A stretch of DNA of 64,000 bases from Rhodospirillaceae bacterium. Lineage in GTDB: Bacteria; Pseudomonadota; Alphaproteobacteria; Rhodospirillales; Rhodospirillaceae. Every line of letters starts with the position of its first letter. Within the stretch, counting starts at the first letter, position 1. The position numbers and the translations under genes are program-made. The stretch spans positions 145,470-209,469 of the forward strand of contig CANJSF010000001.1 of the NCBI GenBank assembly GCA_947476925.1. The letters are read 5' to 3'. Shown here piece after piece: positions 50,002 through 58,425 of the stretch. The notes under the pieces are model-generated. The model made no database searches. It was not told where the DNA came from and saw nothing but the letters and a program-made list of their open reading frames with translations.

Positions 50002-50211
50002 CCTTGGATTGCGCAGCACCCCTCGTCATAATTAAGCCCTAGGTTTCGTACATAACTGCTTAATATGTTTAAGATAACTGAGTTTGGGGATTTGTGTGGG
50101 TTGTACCGCGTGAAGGCCCTGATGTACGGTGAGCATGGGCATACCCGGCCGCCGCAAATAATGCTGGGGGCGCGTGTGACGGGCAATAACCAAGGCCAAC
50201 GACAGTTGACG

Positions 50212-51237
50212 ATGACAATGAGCAAGCCATCGAAATCTTTCTTATCCACGTTGATGCTGGGAACAGCCCTCGCCTGTTTCAGCGGTGGGGCGTTCGCGCA
50301 ATCATCGTCCGCGGTCACAGTTGACCTCAGCGCCATTGATCCGCCACCGGCCGCGACGTCAGGTCGCATCGTTTTGCGCCCGCCTATGGGCACAGCTCCG
50401 GTGACCAATCTGCTGTCTCTGCGCGCTCCCGAGCCAGTAAAAGCTGTCGAACCCGTAAAGAAAGCCGCACCAAAACCAAAGCCGGTTGTTGCGCAAGCCG
50501 AGCCGGCGCCGATGCCCGCAGTTGAGCCCGCGCCAGCTAAGAAGCCCGAACCTGCGGCTGTGGCTGCAACGCCTACCCCGGCACCGGCCGCAAAAGAGCC
50601 CAAGCCTGCTGCCCCCCTGACCCCGCCAGCGCCCGTTGCACCTGTTGCCGCAACGGCGGCAAAGCCAGCGCCAGCGCCTGCTCCGGCTCCGGCTCCTGCC
50701 CCAGCTCCTGTAGCATCTCCCGTGGCTGCAAAACCTGCGCCAGTGCCGCCATCGGCTGCGCCAACAAGCAACGCAACGGTAGCAGTGCCGTCGGCTGCGG
50801 CTGCGCGCAGCGCCAAGCAAGAACCCGTCGGCCCAGTGGCCTCGCCTTTGCCCGACAATCAGCAAACAGCGGCTCTGCCGGCCCAAACAAAAGCGCAAGT
50901 GATTACAACGCCGGCTGAAGATATTGCAGCCTCGCTCACTATTCCTTTTGCGCCGGGTATCATCGAGATCGATGTGAGCCGCCAAGGCACAGTGAAAGAC
51001 TTGGCCCAGCGCATGAGCGCCGATAAGTCGTTGCGCGTGCAGTTGATGGCCTACGCCACGGACCCCGAGAAAAACACCAGCAAGGCGCGCCGGTTAGCAC
51101 TTGATCGCGCCATCGCCATTCGCAACATGCTGATTGAATCCGGTGTTGAACGCACACGCATCGAAGTGCGCGCACTGGGCGACCAGGGCGAAGGCGGTAA
51201 TCTCGACCGAGTTGATGCGGTTGCCATCAAACGTTAG
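50212..51237 (+). CDS. Secreted Pro/Ala-rich protein with a C-terminal OmpA-like domain
   Basis: Signal peptide MTMSKPSKSFLSTLMLGTALACFSGGAFAQ, about 170 aa of P/A/K-rich low complexity including an APAPAPAPAPAPAP run, and a C-terminal SKARRLALDRAIAIRNMLIESGVERTRIEVRALG (OmpA_C-like). Start set at ATG 50212. Confidence 0.7.
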   Translation: MTMSKPSKSFLSTLMLGTALACFSGGAFAQSSSAVTVDLSAIDPPPAATSGRIVLRPPMGTAPVTNLLSLRAPEPVKAVEPVKKAAPKPKPVVAQAEPAPMPAVEPAPAKKPEPAAVAATPTPAPAAKEPKPAAPLTPPAPVAPVAATAAKPAPAPAPAPAPAPAPVASPVAAKPAPVPPSAAPTSNATVAVPSAAAARSAKQEPVGPVASPLPDNQQTAALPAQTKAQVITTPAEDIAASLTIPFAPGIIEIDVSRQGTVKDLAQRMSADKSLRVQLMAYATDPEKNTSKARRLALDRAIAIRNMLIESGVERTRIEVRALGDQGEGGNLDRVDAVAIKR

Positions 51238-51284
51238 GACTAAACTCAGCGGTCGTTCTTTAACAACGCGAGATCAAACACGCG

Positions 51285-52481
51285 ATGACGAGTAGCAAGA
51301 CCTACCTCACGCGCATGGTGCTGTTTCTGATTGTCGTCGGTCTTGGCGCCGCACTGATGGCCGAGAGATTGCTCGGGATTTTCTTGGTCAACCCGCTGCT
51401 CAACGGCGCCATTTTTGGCGTCATCCTTGTCGGCATCATCTTGAACTTTCGCCAAGTGATTTTGCTGGGCCCCGAGATGCGCTGGCTGGACAATTTCCGC
51501 AGCTCGCTGGCCACCGATAGCACCATGCTTTCTGAGCAGCGCACTGACACCTCGGAAGATAAAATTCAGTTGCTCTCGCCCATGGCTCGCATGTTGGCCG
51601 ACAGGCGCGGTAAAGGGCGCATAAGCCTCAGTGCCCCTGCCCTGCGAACGTTGCTCGATGGCATTTCATCGCGCTTGGGCGAAAGCCGCGATTTGGGGCG
51701 TTACTTCACAAGCCTTTGTATTTTTCTCGGATTGCTTGGCACTTTCTGGGGTTTGCTGGGTACGATCAACGCTGTCAGCGACGTGATCAAAAGCCTGACC
51801 GTGTCCGGCACCGATGTCACCGCCATGTTTGACGAGTTGAAAACCGGCCTTGAAGCGCCGTTGTCGGGCATGGGCACCGCGTTTTCGTCGTCGCTCTTCG
51901 GGTTAGCGGGCTCTTTGGTTTTGGGCTTTCTCGATTTGCAATCGGGCCAGGCCCAGAACGCATTTTTCAACGACCTGGAAGAATGGCTGTCGGGACTCAC
52001 CCGATTATCGTCGGGCACCGCGGTTAGCGAAGGCGAGCAAAGCGTGTCGGCTTATACCGAGGCGTTATTGGAACAGACCGCCGAAAGCCTAGATCAATTG
52101 CAACGCATTTTGGCGCGCACCGAACAAAGTCGTGTGGCATCGAACGAACACTTTATCGCGATGAACGAAAAGCTCACGACCCTCACGGAACAAATGCGTA
52201 TTGAAACGCAAGTTCTGCTGCGATTGGCCGAAAACCAAAAAGAACTTACGCCGATTCTGAAGCGAATGAACGAAACGCCGCTTGTCCAAAGCCAAAGCGC
52301 AGGCATGGACGAAGCCACGCGCAACCATATCCGCAATATCGATGGCGCGCTTGTGCGGTTGGCTAACAATCTCGAATCTGGCCGCGAAGACATGGTGCGC
52401 GAGATGCGCTCAGAGATCAAATTGCTGGCCAAGACCCTTGCGGCCAACGAGCGCCGCGACGACGCGACGAGCGACGATTAA
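51285..52481 (+). CDS. MotA/TolQ/ExbB-family proton-channel protein with a long C-terminal coiled-coil tail
   Basis: Two N-terminal TM helices and a second TM pair carrying CIFLGLLGTFWGLLGT and GMGTAFSSSLFGLAGSLVLGF (compare TolQ in this window). These are followed by about 150 aa of heptad-rich sequence. Confidence 0.8.
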   Translation: MTSSKTYLTRMVLFLIVVGLGAALMAERLLGIFLVNPLLNGAIFGVILVGIILNFRQVILLGPEMRWLDNFRSSLATDSTMLSEQRTDTSEDKIQLLSPMARMLADRRGKGRISLSAPALRTLLDGISSRLGESRDLGRYFTSLCIFLGLLGTFWGLLGTINAVSDVIKSLTVSGTDVTAMFDELKTGLEAPLSGMGTAFSSSLFGLAGSLVLGFLDLQSGQAQNAFFNDLEEWLSGLTRLSSGTAVSEGEQSVSAYTEALLEQTAESLDQLQRILARTEQSRVASNEHFIAMNEKLTTLTEQMRIETQVLLRLAENQKELTPILKRMNETPLVQSQSAGMDEATRNHIRNIDGALVRLANNLESGREDMVREMRSEIKLLAKTLAANERRDDATSDD

Positions 52482-52494
52482 GGGAACAGCATCG

Positions 52495-53697
52495 GTGCGC
52501 GCCACTCATCGTCGGCCCCATGAGGTCATCAACATTTGGCCCGGATGGGTTGATGCCCTATCGACGTTGCTCATCATTTTTATCTTCGTGTTGCTGGTTT
52601 TTGTGTTGGGTCAGTTCTTTCTGGGCCAAGCATTGTCGGGCCGCGAGCAAGCCCTGAGCATCTTGAACAAGCGGGTCGCCGAAATGGGCGAGATGCTGTC
52701 GATGGAACGCCAAAACCGCAGCGAACTTGAAGGCAGCGTTGCGCGTTTGTCCGATCAATTACGCGTGGCCAATCAAGATCTCGGCATGTTGACCCAACTG
52801 CGCATCGACTATCGCGATTTGGAAGGTCGGTTCGCTGAAACCTCCACGCAGGCCGGCCAACTTAAATCGTCGCTGGATGCGGCCGTCAAACAAGCGGCGA
52901 GCGATAGCAGCACATTGGCCAAGCAAGCCGAACAACTGGCCTTGATGCAAAATCAAGTCAAAGCGCTTGAAGCTCTGAAGTCGGAGTTAGAAAAACAAGT
53001 TGCCGGCTTGGGTGCGAAAACAGCGACTAGCGACAGCGCGATTGCCGCCGAACGCCGCCTGACAGCCGATGCGCAGGCCCAAGCCGCGCTGATGAGCCAA
53101 CAGTTACAAGAGGTGCAACAAGAGCTGGCGCGCTTAGCCGCAACCTTGGACGCCTCCGACAAACTCTCGGCGGCTCAAAAGGCGCAAATTTCGGATCTGG
53201 GCAAACGCATGAACCGCGCGCTGGCGGGAAAAGTGCAAGAACTGCAGCGCTATCGCTCGGAGTTTTTTGGCAAATTGCGCGATATCTTGGGCACGAGACC
53301 CGGCGTCTCGGTTGTCGGCGACAGATTTGTCTTTCAGTCCGAGGTGTTATTTGCTTCCGGATCGTCGGAACTGGGCGTCGAAGGTCAGCGACAGTTAGTG
53401 CAATTGGCCCAGACGCTGATTGAGATCAGCAAGCAAATCCCCGCCGAGGTGAATTGGATTTTACGCGTCGATGGCCACACCGACACTGTTCCCATTTCAA
53501 CGGCCGTTTTCCCCTCGAATTGGGAACTCTCGGCGGCCCGCGCGCTATCGGTGGTGAAGTTCTTGGCCGCCCAGGGCATCCCGGCCGAGCGACTAGCCGC
53601 GGCCGGCTTTGGGGAATTCCAGCCCCTCGACAAGACCAACACCCCCCAGGCACGAGCCAAAAACCGCAGAATTGAGCTAAAATTGGACCAACGCTAA
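52495..53697 (+). CDS. MotB/OmpA-like peptidoglycan-binding protein with a coiled-coil linker of about 230 aa
   Basis: GTG 52495 follows AGGGA, 14 nt after the upstream stop. Single TM helix with Asp (WPGWVDALSTLLIIFIFVLLVF), a long coiled coil, and a C-terminal OmpA/MotB domain (NWELSAARALSVVKFL...NRRIELKL). The ORF-track extension to 52282 overlaps the upstream gene. Confidence 0.8.
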   Translation: MRATHRRPHEVINIWPGWVDALSTLLIIFIFVLLVFVLGQFFLGQALSGREQALSILNKRVAEMGEMLSMERQNRSELEGSVARLSDQLRVANQDLGMLTQLRIDYRDLEGRFAETSTQAGQLKSSLDAAVKQAASDSSTLAKQAEQLALMQNQVKALEALKSELEKQVAGLGAKTATSDSAIAAERRLTADAQAQAALMSQQLQEVQQELARLAATLDASDKLSAAQKAQISDLGKRMNRALAGKVQELQRYRSEFFGKLRDILGTRPGVSVVGDRFVFQSEVLFASGSSELGVEGQRQLVQLAQTLIEISKQIPAEVNWILRVDGHTDTVPISTAVFPSNWELSAARALSVVKFLAAQGIPAERLAAAGFGEFQPLDKTNTPQARAKNRRIELKLDQR

Positions 53698-53813
53698 ACC
53701 CTCAACCGAGCCTTGAACCGGCTGGGCTGAGCCTGTATAAGGCGCGCTCTTTTGCCGGATTGAGCCGTGCAAATCAGCCAATATAAGGTGCCCTTGCGGC
53801 ACGGGATTAGACG

Positions 53814-54038
53814 ATGAAAAAAGACATTCACCCCGATTATCACGATATCAAAGTCGTCATGACCGATGGCACCGAATACATGACCCGCTCGACATACGGC
53901 AAAGCCGGCGATGTGCTGCGATTGGAAATTGACCCCAAAACTCACCCAGCGTGGACCGGTGTTCATCGCCTGAACGACGCTGGCGGTCAGTTGGCCAAGT
54001 TCAATAAGCGCTTCAAGGGCTTTGGCGAGAAAAAGTAG
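53814..54038 (+). CDS. rpmE: 50S ribosomal protein L31
   Basis: [19 protein letters not shown]...[10 protein letters not shown]...KFNKRF, the Cys-less form. Confidence 0.95.
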
Positions 54039-54065
54039 TTAATCAATACAACTACTACATATAGT

Positions 54066-54095
54066 GGCCGCATCGGTATCGATGCGGCCTTTTTT
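54066..54095 (+). terminator. Rho-independent terminator of rpmE
   Basis: ggccgcatcg-gtat-cgatgcggcc gives a 10-bp perfect stem followed by tttttt. Confidence 0.85.
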
Positions 54096-54257
54096 GTGTT
54101 ATTTTGCAACCGCGAATAGGCCAAAACGTTAATAGTCATCAAAACGCCATTTGAATCCGAACAAATGGGGTGACCGAACAAAGGGTCAACGACGGCCGCG
54201 TTGTTTGAGGATGACTGAAACGTTGTTAACGGAGAGCCCTGCGGGGTCCAGACCGCC

Positions 54258-56162
54258 ATGTGCGCGTTGCTTGCGATAGTTCAATTTGAAGTTCATTTTT
54301 TCCAAGACGGCCGCTGGATGCTGCAATCCCGGTTTCCGGGAGATGAACGCCAGGCAGCTATTCGCGATGCCGTCAGCGTCGAAGCCAGCACGCGCCGCCC
54401 AACCAAGGTCGTCAAAGAAACTTACATTCCGCACGAAAACCGCAGTGAAACTGTGACGATCTATACCGGGCCGTTGCTGAAAGCCGCGATGGATAAATCC
54501 AAAGCGCTTCAAGGCATTCCCCCTCCTGCTCGCGTGATGTCCCGTCCGGGAAAAAGCGTGCCGCAAACAACACATGCTAAAACAGCAGCGCCAAGACTGG
54601 GACCCAACATCGGCGACCTATTCTGGCGCAGCATCATCTCGATGGGCCTGAGCCTCACGGCCGCGACAATCGTCACAGCAATGGTGTCGTGGTTGATGAC
54701 CCACCTGCCCGATTTTGGGATCGCCATTGATGCTGGTAAATCCTCGGCGATCCTGACGCTCACGTACGCCGTGGTTTTTTTGCTGGGCGTCATGTCGATG
54801 TTCCGTTTTGGGACGCCAATTAAGCGGCTCATATCGAATCTATGGCAAAGCGCCTACACCGAAACAACGCAGGCAAAACAAACTCTGCGGGCCAAGCTTC
54901 CGGGCTTGCGTCTAAAGTCAAAACGCTCGACGCAGGCCGCTTTCGAACAACAGCAAACTTTGGCCGAAATGAAGTTGCGCCGGGGTGACCCAGCCCCAAC
55001 GGTAGACGATGACCATGCGAACCTTGATGTGGTCGTGATTGATGAAATGCCAAGTGCTGTCCAACAACTCAGCAAAGCAGCACCCGAGCCCGCTCAACAG
55101 CAAGCAGCATCACCTCAAGAGGCACAGTTTACGCCCCTTCCAGCTAAGCTCGAAGTCGAGTTGCCCAAACCACTTGATGACAGTGCTGAAGCATCGTTCG
55201 AAGCCGGCCAGGTGAGCCCAGCCGCTCCACTGCCGCCTACGGCGAAAGGTGTAGTGCCGCCTTCAGCGACATTTAGCCCAGCTATAAATGAACTTCAGCG
55301 CAGCATGGCTCTGCGCTTCGTCACCGAAGTCATTTTACCGCAGATTGGCCGCGCGCAAGATGACCCAGTGGCGCGTCGTGGCGCCGCGCTTTTCCTGACT
55401 GGTGCAATGACTCAGCTCGCCGGCAGTTCGAACCTCAACCCGCCATTGACGATGAATCTGATTTCAACGTCGGTCATGGCCGCCCTACCGCGACATGCCT
55501 TTGATGCATTTATGAACCAATACGACACGCATGTATCTAATCCCAGCAATGGCGCAATTATTGATGATGGCCGGCAAGCGATGTCGCGGTTTCTTGGCGG
55601 TCAAAAAAATGAAGGCGCTTTGGCGCTTAGCCTCAAGGCATGGCGCGTTCCCATGCCTGCGGTCCTTGCGCCATCGCAGGCAAATCGCGCGAATAATTCC
55701 GCTACCCCAACGGACTATTATTTGCTTACCGAATTTAGAAACAGCGACGCGTTCATGATGGATTTCCACAACCATATTGTTCGCCAAGCCGTCGAGACAA
55801 GCGATGGGCGTGAAATCAAACATACCGGTCGGGGCATCCTTGCGCGTTTCGAGTACGCCGATTTAGCGATACAAGCCGCGATGTCGATTGCCGCGAAAAT
55901 CAAATCCTCACCCGGCGTACCTCAAGGCGTGTTTGTCGCTGTGGCGTTAAACGCAGGGTTCGGTGCCGTCGACGACCCGCTTCTCTCGTCAACCATCACG
56001 AAAAGCGCGCAAACCGTTCTTGATACCGTCGCCTCAGGTTCAGTTGTGTGCGACGCGCACGTGCTTGCAAACGCCCACGCGACTTCACATTTGGTCAGCC
56101 GCCCGTTGACTGGCAATTGGCTCTTATTGAACGAGAAGTCGCTCGTCACTGCCGTTGGTTAA
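54258..56162 (+). CDS. Membrane-anchored class III nucleotidyl-cyclase-like protein with a degenerate active site
   Basis: 634 aa with the same architecture as the downstream paralogue. C-terminal GREIKHTGRGILARF and AVALNAGFG align to GREVKHTGDGIMAVF and RIGINAGEA, but the second metal Asp is Arg and FTD is TEF. Two TM helices lie near residues 130-190. Confidence 0.7.
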   Translation: MCALLAIVQFEVHFFQDGRWMLQSRFPGDERQAAIRDAVSVEASTRRPTKVVKETYIPHENRSETVTIYTGPLLKAAMDKSKALQGIPPPARVMSRPGKSVPQTTHAKTAAPRLGPNIGDLFWRSIISMGLSLTAATIVTAMVSWLMTHLPDFGIAIDAGKSSAILTLTYAVVFLLGVMSMFRFGTPIKRLISNLWQSAYTETTQAKQTLRAKLPGLRLKSKRSTQAAFEQQQTLAEMKLRRGDPAPTVDDDHANLDVVVIDEMPSAVQQLSKAAPEPAQQQAASPQEAQFTPLPAKLEVELPKPLDDSAEASFEAGQVSPAAPLPPTAKGVVPPSATFSPAINELQRSMALRFVTEVILPQIGRAQDDPVARRGAALFLTGAMTQLAGSSNLNPPLTMNLISTSVMAALPRHAFDAFMNQYDTHVSNPSNGAIIDDGRQAMSRFLGGQKNEGALALSLKAWRVPMPAVLAPSQANRANNSATPTDYYLLTEFRNSDAFMMDFHNHIVRQAVETSDGREIKHTGRGILARFEYADLAIQAAMSIAAKIKSSPGVPQGVFVAVALNAGFGAVDDPLLSSTITKSAQTVLDTVASGSVVCDAHVLANAHATSHLVSRPLTGNWLLLNEKSLVTAVG

Positions 56163-56529
56163 GTGGCATGATCTGAGGCGCATTTAAAACGTGAAACTTC
56201 GTCCGCAGCAGTTCATTAAGAGCATGATTTCCAGAGCTTTTTTGGGTGTCTGCTCGCCTCAAGATCGAAGAAAGCCGCCAAGCAAGTTAATTCGCCCAAT
56301 GGTTGAATAATGGTCTGGCGTATGGCAGTTTCCGAGGCGAATGGGAGTTCTCTATCTGATGGAGGTCGTTACTTAAGCGATCCTTAGAGATTTTATAACA
56401 CCTTCAATAGAAGTGTCTGAGGCAAAAAAGGCCCGGAATATGTAGGGTTGGCTTAGCGTCTGTAGGTCGTGATACGTCACGCCGCAAAGCTTTCAACTCA
56501 AAATTTAAAATAGGCGTCTTGATCGGGCC

Positions 56530-58425
56530 ATGGCTCGCGACAGCTACGAAGTTTACTACTACCAAAACAGTCGCTGGTCGGTTCACGCCAGCTACGAAGC
56601 AGACGCGCGAGAGGAATCCGTCGCCGAGGCGATGAACGTCGAAGCGAAGTTCGGCTATCCGTGTCGAGTCATCAAAGAGACATTTTTTCCCGAGACAAAC
56701 ACGTCTGAAGAAGTGGTCGTTTGGCAAAGTGCAAAAGCCAAAAAGATGGCCGATTCAGACAATATGTTTGGCAACAAGCAACAGGCTGCGCCTGCCAAAC
56801 CCGCTGCCAAAAAAAGCCCCCCTCCGCCGCCGCCGCCAAAGCGCGACGAGAAAAAGCCAAAACGCCCGCCGCCGAGTCCGATCAAAAAATCAACGGGCAA
56901 GGCCAAGAAGAAGAAAACGAAAAAAGGCTTTTTCGGAAAATTGCTGACATCGATCAGCATCAGCGCCGCCGTTGCTATCGGTTCGGCCGCGTTTACCGTG
57001 TTGTTGATTTTGTATCTGCAAGATCAATCGTACATCGCCCCCGAGAATCGTACGCCGATCATTTTCGGTACATTTGTGACGGTGTTTTTCGTCACGTTGC
57101 TCTACTCATTGAACCGAGAGTTCAGCCTGCTTGGCACAGCTTTGAAATCTGAAGCCGCGCCGGCGCGCGCCAGTTCCGCAATGCAAAGTCCCATGATGCG
57201 CGCCGCAGCAGCCCCGCCGACGCAAGATGCTGAGTTCGACCAAGTTGAGATCGAACGGGGACAAGAAATAGACGAAGAATTTGAAACCGAAACCGCCGAG
57301 GACGAAGACGCAGAGTTGCCGGCCGAACTTGATGCGGACATGACAGAGACGACGGAACCTGAGGCCTCGCAGCCAGCGTCGGAGCCAGAACCTGAACCAC
57401 AGCCTGAGCCAGTACGAGCGGAACCTCAACCAGCGCCTCAAGCTGTTTCGAAGCCTGAGCCAAAAGCGGAGAAAAAGCCGCCTGAGCAAAGCCCGAACGA
57501 CGATGAAGCTCGGCAACTGTTTGCGGGCTTTGTCAATCAAGCGAACGCAACCGTGGCCAAAGAATTGGGTGAACTCAATGCTTTCTCACGTTTTGGGATG
57601 AGCCTGTTGCTGGCCGGCGCGGTGTCATCTCTCGGTCAATCCAAACGCCTCGGGCGCGAGCCTCAGCTCGCCGTGCTGAAACAAGGACTCAGCGGTATCG
57701 GCAATACGCCTGACCGGACGCAAACCTTCTGCGCCGAGCTACCCGGTTACGGCAAGAACCCGCGCTATACAGGTATGATTCAAAGCGGATCTAAATCCAT
57801 GACCGCCTATTTGAAAGGCGATTCCAACGCCACCAATGGGATGGGAGCAATGTTGGCCGACTGGTCGAAGCCCGAAAAACGCCCGTCAGTGCCATCCGTC
57901 TTCACATTCCTCTTTACCGATATTGCAGGCTCGACCGCAATGACGCAGCAATTGGGCAATGCTGGCGCGCAAAAAGTAGTTCGTGCGCACAACACAGCGG
58001 TGCGCGGCGCGATTGCCAAAGTCAAAGGTCGCGAAGTCAAACATACAGGCGACGGCATCATGGCCGTGTTTAGTGATGCGGCCTCAGCAGTGAACGCATC
58101 AATCCAGATGCAGCGCGATATTGCCGCTCATAACAAAGCCAACCCATCACTTCCGTTAGTTGTGCGCATTGGGATCAACGCTGGTGAAGCTGTTGAAGAA
58201 GAAAACGATTTCTTTGGCGCTGCAGTGCAAATGACTGCGCGAACATGCTCAAAAGCCACCGATGGAAACATTTGGGTCACTCAGTCCGTCGTTGATGGCT
58301 GCAAAGGACAACGCTTGGGCTTTATCCCGCGCGGAAAGTTTGAAATGAAGGGCATCCAAGGTGCCCGCCCGCTTTATGAGGTCGGCTGGACCGAGAAGCA
58401 CAAGAACGAACTGGCAGATCTTTAG
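56530..58425 (+). CDS. Membrane-anchored class III adenylate/guanylate cyclase
   Basis: The C-terminal FTFLFTDIAGSTAM ... KHTGDGIMAVF ... VRIGINAGEAV...DFFGAAVQMTAR ... MKGIQGARPLYEV is a class III cyclase domain. There are two TM helices, an acidic EPEPEPQPEP linker and an N-terminal domain of about 70 aa shared with the upstream paralogue. Confidence 0.85.
   Translation: MARDSYEVYYYQNSRWSVHASYEADAREESVAEAMNVEAKFGYPCRVIKETFFPETNTSEEVVVWQSAKAKKMADSDNMFGNKQQAAPAKPAAKKSPPPPPPPKRDEKKPKRPPPSPIKKSTGKAKKKKTKKGFFGKLLTSISISAAVAIGSAAFTVLLILYLQDQSYIAPENRTPIIFGTFVTVFFVTLLYSLNREFSLLGTALKSEAAPARASSAMQSPMMRAAAAPPTQDAEFDQVEIERGQEIDEEFETETAEDEDAELPAELDADMTETTEPEASQPASEPEPEPQPEPVRAEPQPAPQAVSKPEPKAEKKPPEQSPNDDEARQLFAGFVNQANATVAKELGELNAFSRFGMSLLLAGAVSSLGQSKRLGREPQLAVLKQGLSGIGNTPDRTQTFCAELPGYGKNPRYTGMIQSGSKSMTAYLKGDSNATNGMGAMLADWSKPEKRPSVPSVFTFLFTDIAGSTAMTQQLGNAGAQKVVRAHNTAVRGAIAKVKGREVKHTGDGIMAVFSDAASAVNASIQMQRDIAAHNKANPSLPLVVRIGINAGEAVEEENDFFGAAVQMTARTCSKATDGNIWVTQSVVDGCKGQRLGFIPRGKFEMKGIQGARPLYEVGWTEKHKNELADL

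Follow-up and report, generated by a model that had tools for sequence, protein, structure and literature searches.

Class III nucleotide cyclases work as dimers with their active sites at the dimer interface. One subunit supplies two metal-binding aspartates to each site, the other supplies a Lys, an Asp, an Asn and an Arg. This composition of the site is reportedly to be credited to Tesmer et al. in 1997 and 1999 and to Linder and Schultz. In the mammalian cyclase the two sets are divided between two domains, i.e., C1 keeps the metal-binding aspartates and C2 keeps the Lys/Asp/Asn/Arg set; the degeneracy is reciprocal. Among kinases and GGDEF/EAL proteins, paralogues which have lost catalysis and regulate their live counterparts are a familiar phenomenon. 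A literature search for bacterial class III cyclases with dead-cyclase partners, and for the particular cyclase family treated here, retrieved no paper. We analyzed two adjacent genes of this family, P0001 and P0002, from a Rhodospirillaceae bacterium. They are located in a window of 64,000 nucleotides, by which we mean the whole stretch of DNA examined (contig CANJSF010000001.1, positions 145,470 to 209,469). We propose, with a probability of about 0.55, that P0001 is a conserved non-catalytic partner which regulates the Gln-type class III adenylate cyclase P0002 by pairing with it.

All coordinates are those of the window, and both genes with all their parts are on the + strand. The pseudo-cyclase gene P0001 (54258..56162, 634 amino acids, aa) and the gene for the membrane-anchored class III adenylate cyclase P0002 (56530..58425, 631 aa) follow each other in tandem, separated by 367 nucleotides (nt); the open reading frames (ORFs) are those of the initial annotation. 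Both proteins have the same architecture: an N-terminal domain of about 65 aa, a two-helix membrane hairpin, a low-complexity linker, a helical domain of about 120 aa and a domain with class III cyclase fold. A BLASTP comparison aligns residues 372-567 of P0001 with 353-552 of P0002 at 28% identity over 214 columns (E 2e-14), a stretch which takes in a helical region as well as the N-terminal half of the cyclase domain. In a family alignment of 32 sequences, the two proteins share 32% identity over their N-terminal 70 residues. Hydropathy detects two hydrophobic segments in each protein, about 13 residues apart. P0001 and P0002 are tandem paralogues of a single architecture, as the initial annotation had it.

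P0001 is without any Pfam match. An AlphaFold2 model of residues 336-634, computed with an input of 18 sequences, has a mean predicted local distance difference test score (pLDDT) of 88 and displays seven helices followed by a βαβ domain. When Foldseek is used, the degenerate cyclase-homology domain in this model (aa 486-626, 55713..56135) is matched to Ma1120 with E 4e-7 and a template-modelling score (TM-score) of 0.61 on the target, and to the cyclase-homology domain of Rv1900c with E 3e-6. There are 126 PDB matches at E<=0.001, and the best 50 are all class III cyclases.

The catalytic residues tell a different story from the fold. The positions of the two metal-binding aspartates are occupied by E492 and R525, the motif LFTDIAGS having become LLTEFRNS and GDG having become GRG. 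The initial annotation had called the upstream copy catalytically dead on account of these positions. Our alignment agrees: neither Asp is retained, and the loss is fixed in 13 orthologue clusters, in which Arg (once His) occupies the second metal position and E, D or V the first. In the more distant pseudo-copies from other genera the second position is K, T or A and the first is Y, S or a gap; in most pseudo-copies the second Asp has given way to a basic residue (R, K or H). The losses go further than was noticed at first. P0001 is also devoid of the transition-state Gln/Arg pair which is supplied by the other domain face: K582 stands for Gln567 of P0002 and T586 for Arg571, and neither K582 nor T586 is conserved. 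No Arg and no Gln or Asn is found at the transition-state positions of any pseudo-copy aligned. Judged by the model, P0001 is a true cyclase-fold protein without catalytic residues on either face.

How does this compare with mammalian C1/C2 and with the alpha/beta subunits of soluble guanylate cyclase? The likeness is that paralogous class III domains are involved, of which one site is degenerate. In C1/C2 the losses are complementary and one complete site remains, whereas P0001 is without both sets of residues and P0002 possesses both; reciprocal degeneracy, the hallmark of a C1/C2-type heterodimer, is absent. Further, the domains of P0001 and P0002 are encoded by separate genes and not joined in one chain. 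According to the canonical rule, a P0001:P0002 dimer would have one site with the metal residues of P0002 and no transition-state pair, and a second site with the Lys/Asp/Gln/Arg of P0002 and no metal ligands. A mixed dimer would be without a complete site, and therefore P0001 is better read as a non-catalytic partner than as one half of an enzyme.

The initial annotation had favored precisely such an asymmetric heterodimer, in which P0001 and P0002 would jointly constitute the functional enzyme, one site being competent and the other degenerate. This proposal is not supported by the residue analysis and we consider it improbable. It draws on the established interface location of class III active sites, on the tandem arrangement and co-inheritance of the paralogues and on Lys521, which is kept in P0001. 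Moreover, the basic residue at the second metal position of most pseudo-copies could bind phosphate in a non-catalytic pocket. However, Lys521 varies across the pseudo-copy lineages (R, T or P), the residues lost by P0001 are not the complement of residues lost by P0002, and a homodimer of P0002, in which neither face lacks a residue of the set, is expected to be active.

Residues 459-610 of the downstream protein P0002 match the Pfam family Guanylate_cyc (PF00211) with E 1e-15 and 58.3 bits versus a cut-off of 21.9, and 187 relatives are found at E<=0.001. Among the sequences of solved structures in the PDB the nearest are Ma1120 from Mycobacterium avium (E 2e-22) and the cyclase domain of Rv1900c/LipJ (E 5e-17). 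The catalytic cyclase-homology domain (aa 457-620, 57898..58389) contains D464, D508, K504, D560, Q567, R571 and K607, residues which align with Ma1120 and do not vary among 27 aligned relatives with identities as low as 30%. D464 and D508 are the metal-binding aspartates. K504 and D560, which align with K101 and D157 of Ma1120, are the substrate pair of the ATP type. Of the transition-state pair R571 is present, and the canonical Asn position is taken by Gln567 in the motif AVQMTAR.

The initial annotation had correctly pointed to this Gln and had, for that reason, been uncertain about the activity of the downstream copy. The observation holds, yet the doubt is weakened. Gln is near family-wide: among 293 members with a length of 450 aa or more the pattern DKDDQRK is present in 236 and DKDDNRK in 4, and one further member with Asn at this position has Glu at the first metal position. 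Ma1120 has K101 and D157, an Ala164 in place of the canonical Asn, and R168, and is an active adenylate cyclase; its activity is drastically lowered when Asn is introduced in the A164N mutant (PMC4215837). From these alignments Gln567 appears as a family trait within a subgroup that tolerates the loss of Asn. Synthesis of cyclic AMP (cAMP) by P0002 is likely because the catalytic set is complete and because Ma1120 is active with Ala at the Asn position. By its residues, P0002 is most probably active as an adenylate cyclase.

Ma1120 and Rv1900c/LipJ of Mycobacterium tuberculosis are the closest described relatives of the pair. They are the best sequence matches of P0002 as well as the best fold matches of the P0001 pseudo-domain, and they share the Lys/Asp substrate pair. 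Ma1120 resembles P0002 also in the replacement of the canonical Asn, with Ala in the former and Gln in the latter. In contrast to the Rhodospirillaceae proteins, they are actinobacterial and occur in a soluble form or as a lipase fusion as N-terminal module. They have no N-terminal domain of the present type, no two-transmembrane hairpin, no such helical domain and no dead partner gene.

Is P0001 a gene on its way out? A decaying duplicate without function would be in accord with the loss of all catalytic residues and the absence of a Pfam match. We regard this as very improbable, as the conservation speaks a different language. The 13 orthologue clusters with 42-59% identity to P0001 are all full length and intact and have about 100 invariant columns in this genus-level set; in several genera the frames are still open over their full length, at identities of 26-59%, and the fold is predicted with confidence. 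In the pseudo-copies the cyclase core motifs HN..VR and DG.E.KHTG.G..A.F and the helical domain stay conserved. Four genera of the family, and many metagenome-assembled genomes, have an intact pseudo-copy ORF. P0001 is under purifying selection.

In a search of 41 related genomes the pair, i.e., the pseudo-copy upstream and the active copy downstream on the same strand, was found in several genomes of the genus of the window and also outside it, in three further genera of the same family. Three further metagenome contigs carry the same pair. At every locus with visible context the pseudo-copy is directly upstream on the same strand. Of 80 Rhodospirillales loci from named genomes, the pair is complete in L017-L021 and fragmentary in L022, L023 and L047; tandem copies which are both active are present in L038, L076 and G027, and all remaining named-genome loci have a single active copy. 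Genome G002 of the same genus gave no match to the P0001 query. This genome probably lacks both genes because the same query detects P0002-type copies elsewhere.

A maximum-likelihood tree of 146 sequences places 36 of 38 pseudo-copies in two neighboring clades which stand separate from the active copies. The cyclases that are paired with a pseudo-copy are united in a single clade (26 rows, support 99), and pseudo-copies and partners are grouped by lineage in a broadly similar manner. That the pseudo clade branches off outside all the active sequences is probably a long-branch effect. The pseudo-copy and its active neighbor are co-inherited. The simplest history compatible with the tree would be a single duplication at the base of the partnered clade, after which the upstream gene degenerated and both were passed on together. 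Separate from this clade, tandems in other Rhodospirillales lineages (L038 6986-8929 and 9119-11029; L076 4805-6712 and 6986-8992; L014 3487-5256 and 5393-7516) have all catalytic residues in both copies.

The mechanism which we propose would operate as follows. P0002, a membrane-tethered class III adenylate cyclase closest to the actinobacterial Ma1120/Rv1900c type, would work as a homodimer. P0001 would have originated from one old tandem duplication of a P0002-type gene. All its folded parts, from the N-terminal domain through hairpin and helical domain to the cyclase fold, have been retained, whereas every catalytic residue on both faces has been lost, and it has since been inherited jointly with its active neighbor. 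P0001 may pair with P0002 via the dimerizing modules which they share (cyclase fold, helical domain or membrane hairpin). Such pairing would withdraw P0002 from active homodimers, and the output of cAMP would be lowered or gated. Both the physical pairing and the direction of its effect we infer from the comparisons described above.

A peculiar feature of the live enzyme touches on this proposal. P0002 terminates in an octapeptide tail, HKNELADL (aa 624-631, 58399..58422), that is private to partnered cyclases. The tail, in the general form H[KR][ND]E[LI]A[DN]L, ends 10 of 10 tabulated partnered cyclases (one of them ends ...ADQ). Two more partners, L098 and L100, end in HKNELADL, which brings the partnered cyclases checked to 12. 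It is absent from all of approximately 65 unpartnered cyclases, the both-active tandems included. A tail of this kind would be the type of feature left behind by a partner-specific contact.

Several observations do not favor the pairing of P0001 with P0002. First, the tail and the pseudo-copy arose on one branch, i.e., their coincidence is a single event and not many. Second, adjacency and co-inheritance could merely reflect the history of duplication. Third, the spacer between the genes (56163..56529, 367 nt, no strand assigned) has counterparts of 125-370 nt between the same genes in relatives, and spacers of this length leave room for independent expression. The initial annotation had described the spacer as lower in guanine plus cytosine (GC), which is accurate (0.48-0.50 compared to 0.54-0.57 in the flanks), and had taken it as a hint of separate promoters. 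Within the spacer no terminator and no sigma-70-like site on the + strand was found. A regulatory RNA in these spacers was considered and rejected, as no Rfam match was obtained at E<=1. Fourth, the parts of the pseudo-copy under the strongest constraint are the N-terminal domain and the hairpin and not the cyclase fold. In the same six genomes the mean pairwise identities of pseudo-copy and active copy are 0.67 and 0.70 for the N-terminal domain, 0.61 and 0.41 for the membrane hairpin, 0.56 and 0.71 for the helical domain, and 0.48 and 0.84 for the cyclase fold.

These data are the foundation of another explanation, according to which P0001 has a function of its own, as a membrane scaffold, as a receptor for nucleotides or cyclic nucleoside monophosphates, or as a partner of some other protein via its N-terminal domain and hairpin; it would then adjoin P0002 merely since it arose there. 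A hairpin more conserved than that of P0002, a cyclase fold which is the least constrained of all folded domains of P0001, and a spacer which permits separate expression would fit an independent protein. Nevertheless, we view an independent function as rather unlikely. In the loci examined the pseudo-copy is never found away from an active partner, and G002 probably is without both genes. The trees of both copies group the lineages similarly. Also, the pseudo-copies have conserved their helical domain as well as the core motifs of the cyclase.

Returning to the regulatory pairing of P0001 with P0002, one can speculate about how it might be controlled. The pseudo-cyclase and the HKNELADL tail might constitute a lineage-specific switch in which the tail docks on the ββαββ N-terminal domain of the pseudo-copy or in the metal-free pocket at Arg525. 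Whether P0002 resides in inactive mixed dimers or in active homodimers would then be decided by a signal which the N-terminal or helical domains perceive. In a small set of mixed cyclase dimers, which would include two paralogues endowed with the metal-binding aspartates only, the transition-state Arg would come from P0002 alone. We put this elaboration forward with considerable reservation and give it little credence.

The two paralogues in question are encoded elsewhere in the same genome, on contig C6 (L016 3985-5418, 477 aa, and L016 8355-10031, 558 aa). Both have the same helical and cyclase domains, and the protein of 558 aa also has the N-terminal domain. Both keep the two metal-binding aspartates and are without the transition-state Arg. 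The two genes, 3-4 kb apart, are kept in three other genomes of the genus (L102, L103, L104). Of the four paralogues P0002 alone has the full catalytic set, and a C1/C2-like mixed dimer would therefore be more plausible for the C6 paralogues than for P0001.

What is known about the domains ahead of the cyclase fold? The N-terminal domains of P0001 (aa 8-72, 54279..54473) and P0002 (aa 5-68, 56542..56733) have a ββαββ topology. In the AlphaFold2 model of the P0002 domain (pLDDT 90.7) the strands extend over residues 3-12, 15-23, 45-53 and 58-66, and the helix over 27-41. The initial annotation had been unable to assign this domain, and so were we: there is no match in Pfam (E<=10), NCBIfam or the PDB sequences. 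A Foldseek search of the PDB yielded as best hits folds similar to the Rubisco small subunit (E 0.036-0.05, TM-score about 0.45-0.5), which are not significant. In the viral library BFVD small uncharacterized phage proteins alone were matched (best E 7.8e-4, TM-score 0.71).

Among 1.84 billion representative proteins searched with a profile, 889 carry this domain. In all of the best 150 the position is N-terminal. In a varied sample of 60 carriers Guanylate_cyc is the sole recurring Pfam domain (22 members). Other output domains fused to the N-terminal domain were considered and dismissed, as the remaining carriers sampled are pseudo-copies or fragments; short matches are fragments as well. 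Within the sample of 60 proteins the domain is restricted to this cyclase family.

The membrane hairpin of P0001 (aa ~121-184, 54618..54809) consists of the hydropathy segments 125-147 and 161-184 with an outside loop of about 13 aa, that of P0002 (aa ~134-195, 56929..57114) of the segments 138-165 and 175-195. The first helix of the latter is preceded by the Lys-rich stretch KKSTGKAKKKKTKKG. The positive-inside rule governs membrane topology, and because of this Lys-rich stretch the N-terminal domain and everything after the hairpin are predicted to be cytoplasmic. In the hairpin region of P0001 the residues W123, R124, W145, F153, G154 and F182-G185 are invariant in the 13 orthologue clusters. 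The short outside loop of the pseudo-cyclase hairpin has invariant aromatic and Gly residues. Together with the higher identity of this hairpin in the six genomes (0.61 versus 0.41 in the active copy), this pattern hints at a specific intramembrane contact of the pseudo-cyclase hairpin.

The helical domains of P0001 (aa 345-463, 55290..55646) and P0002 (aa 330-452, 57517..57885) are homologous. In the AlphaFold2 model the former has seven helices with a pLDDT mostly >90; the latter is a conserved block in the family alignment. The domain has no Pfam match, and a profile search against PDB sequences gave a best E of 0.051, which is not significant. A parallel exists in the cyclases of the Rv1264 type, which likewise have an all-helical domain directly ahead of the cyclase domain, and Rv1264 holoenzyme structures appear among the fold matches of P0001 at ranks 13, 15 and 22. 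With a root-mean-square deviation of 17-19 Å the superposition is poor outside the cyclase domain. The helical domain matches neither the Pfam model of the Rv1264-type regulatory domain nor any PDB sequence, and this fold alignment does not establish homology of the helical domains. It is likely that the N-terminal and helical domains carry the regulatory input of this cAMP system.

The genes which surround the pair are of a housekeeping character. Upstream are OmpA-like, ZorA-like and ZorB-like genes (50065-53697). In the gap of 560 nt between the ZorB-like gene and P0001 resides rpmE, the gene for ribosomal protein L31 (53814..54038, + strand, 74 aa, Pfam PF01197 with E 4e-24), at the same position as in relatives. 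It is followed by a strong terminator-like hairpin (54066..54089, + strand) with a stem of 10 bp, 8 of them G-C pairs, and then TTTTTTGTGT. Two minus-strand ORFs of 90 aa (53694-53966 and 53987-54259) overlap the rpmE region and are probably spurious. The order OmpA, ZorA-like, ZorB-like, then the cyclase, then a Zn-dehydrogenase and TrcR is kept in most of the 80 Rhodospirillales loci. A functional link of the cyclases to the ZorAB-like stator genes was considered and rejected. Since rpmE and its terminator intervene, here and in relatives, this neighborhood is read as conserved gene order and not as an operon.

A role in defence was examined as well. P0002 has the class III fold in common with PycC of the Pycsar system, and PADLOC reports a weak match (best E 1.7e-10, 38.7 bits). 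However, this score is below those of generic cyclase models (58-86 bits), and the Lys/Asp pair of P0002 is of the purine type. Different from Pycsar, P0002 is embedded in a housekeeping neighborhood that is conserved throughout an order, and no gene for an effector is in its vicinity. With weak, generic PycC matches and with rpmE, ZorAB-like genes, Zn-dehydrogenase and TrcR as neighbors, Pycsar or any other defence system was rejected.

In P0001/P0002 nature has provided a clean case: a full-length dead copy which always adjoins a live copy, in several genera, and a live enzyme which carries a matching tail. Along the way two unassigned domains have been defined, the ββαββ N-terminal domain with about 900 representative proteins and the helical domain ahead of the cyclase. 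The pair is amenable to a direct test by ordinary biochemistry. The cAMP system to which it belongs is widespread in Rhodospirillales, including the cultured genera Magnetospirillum, Thalassospira, Novispirillum and Caenispirillum.

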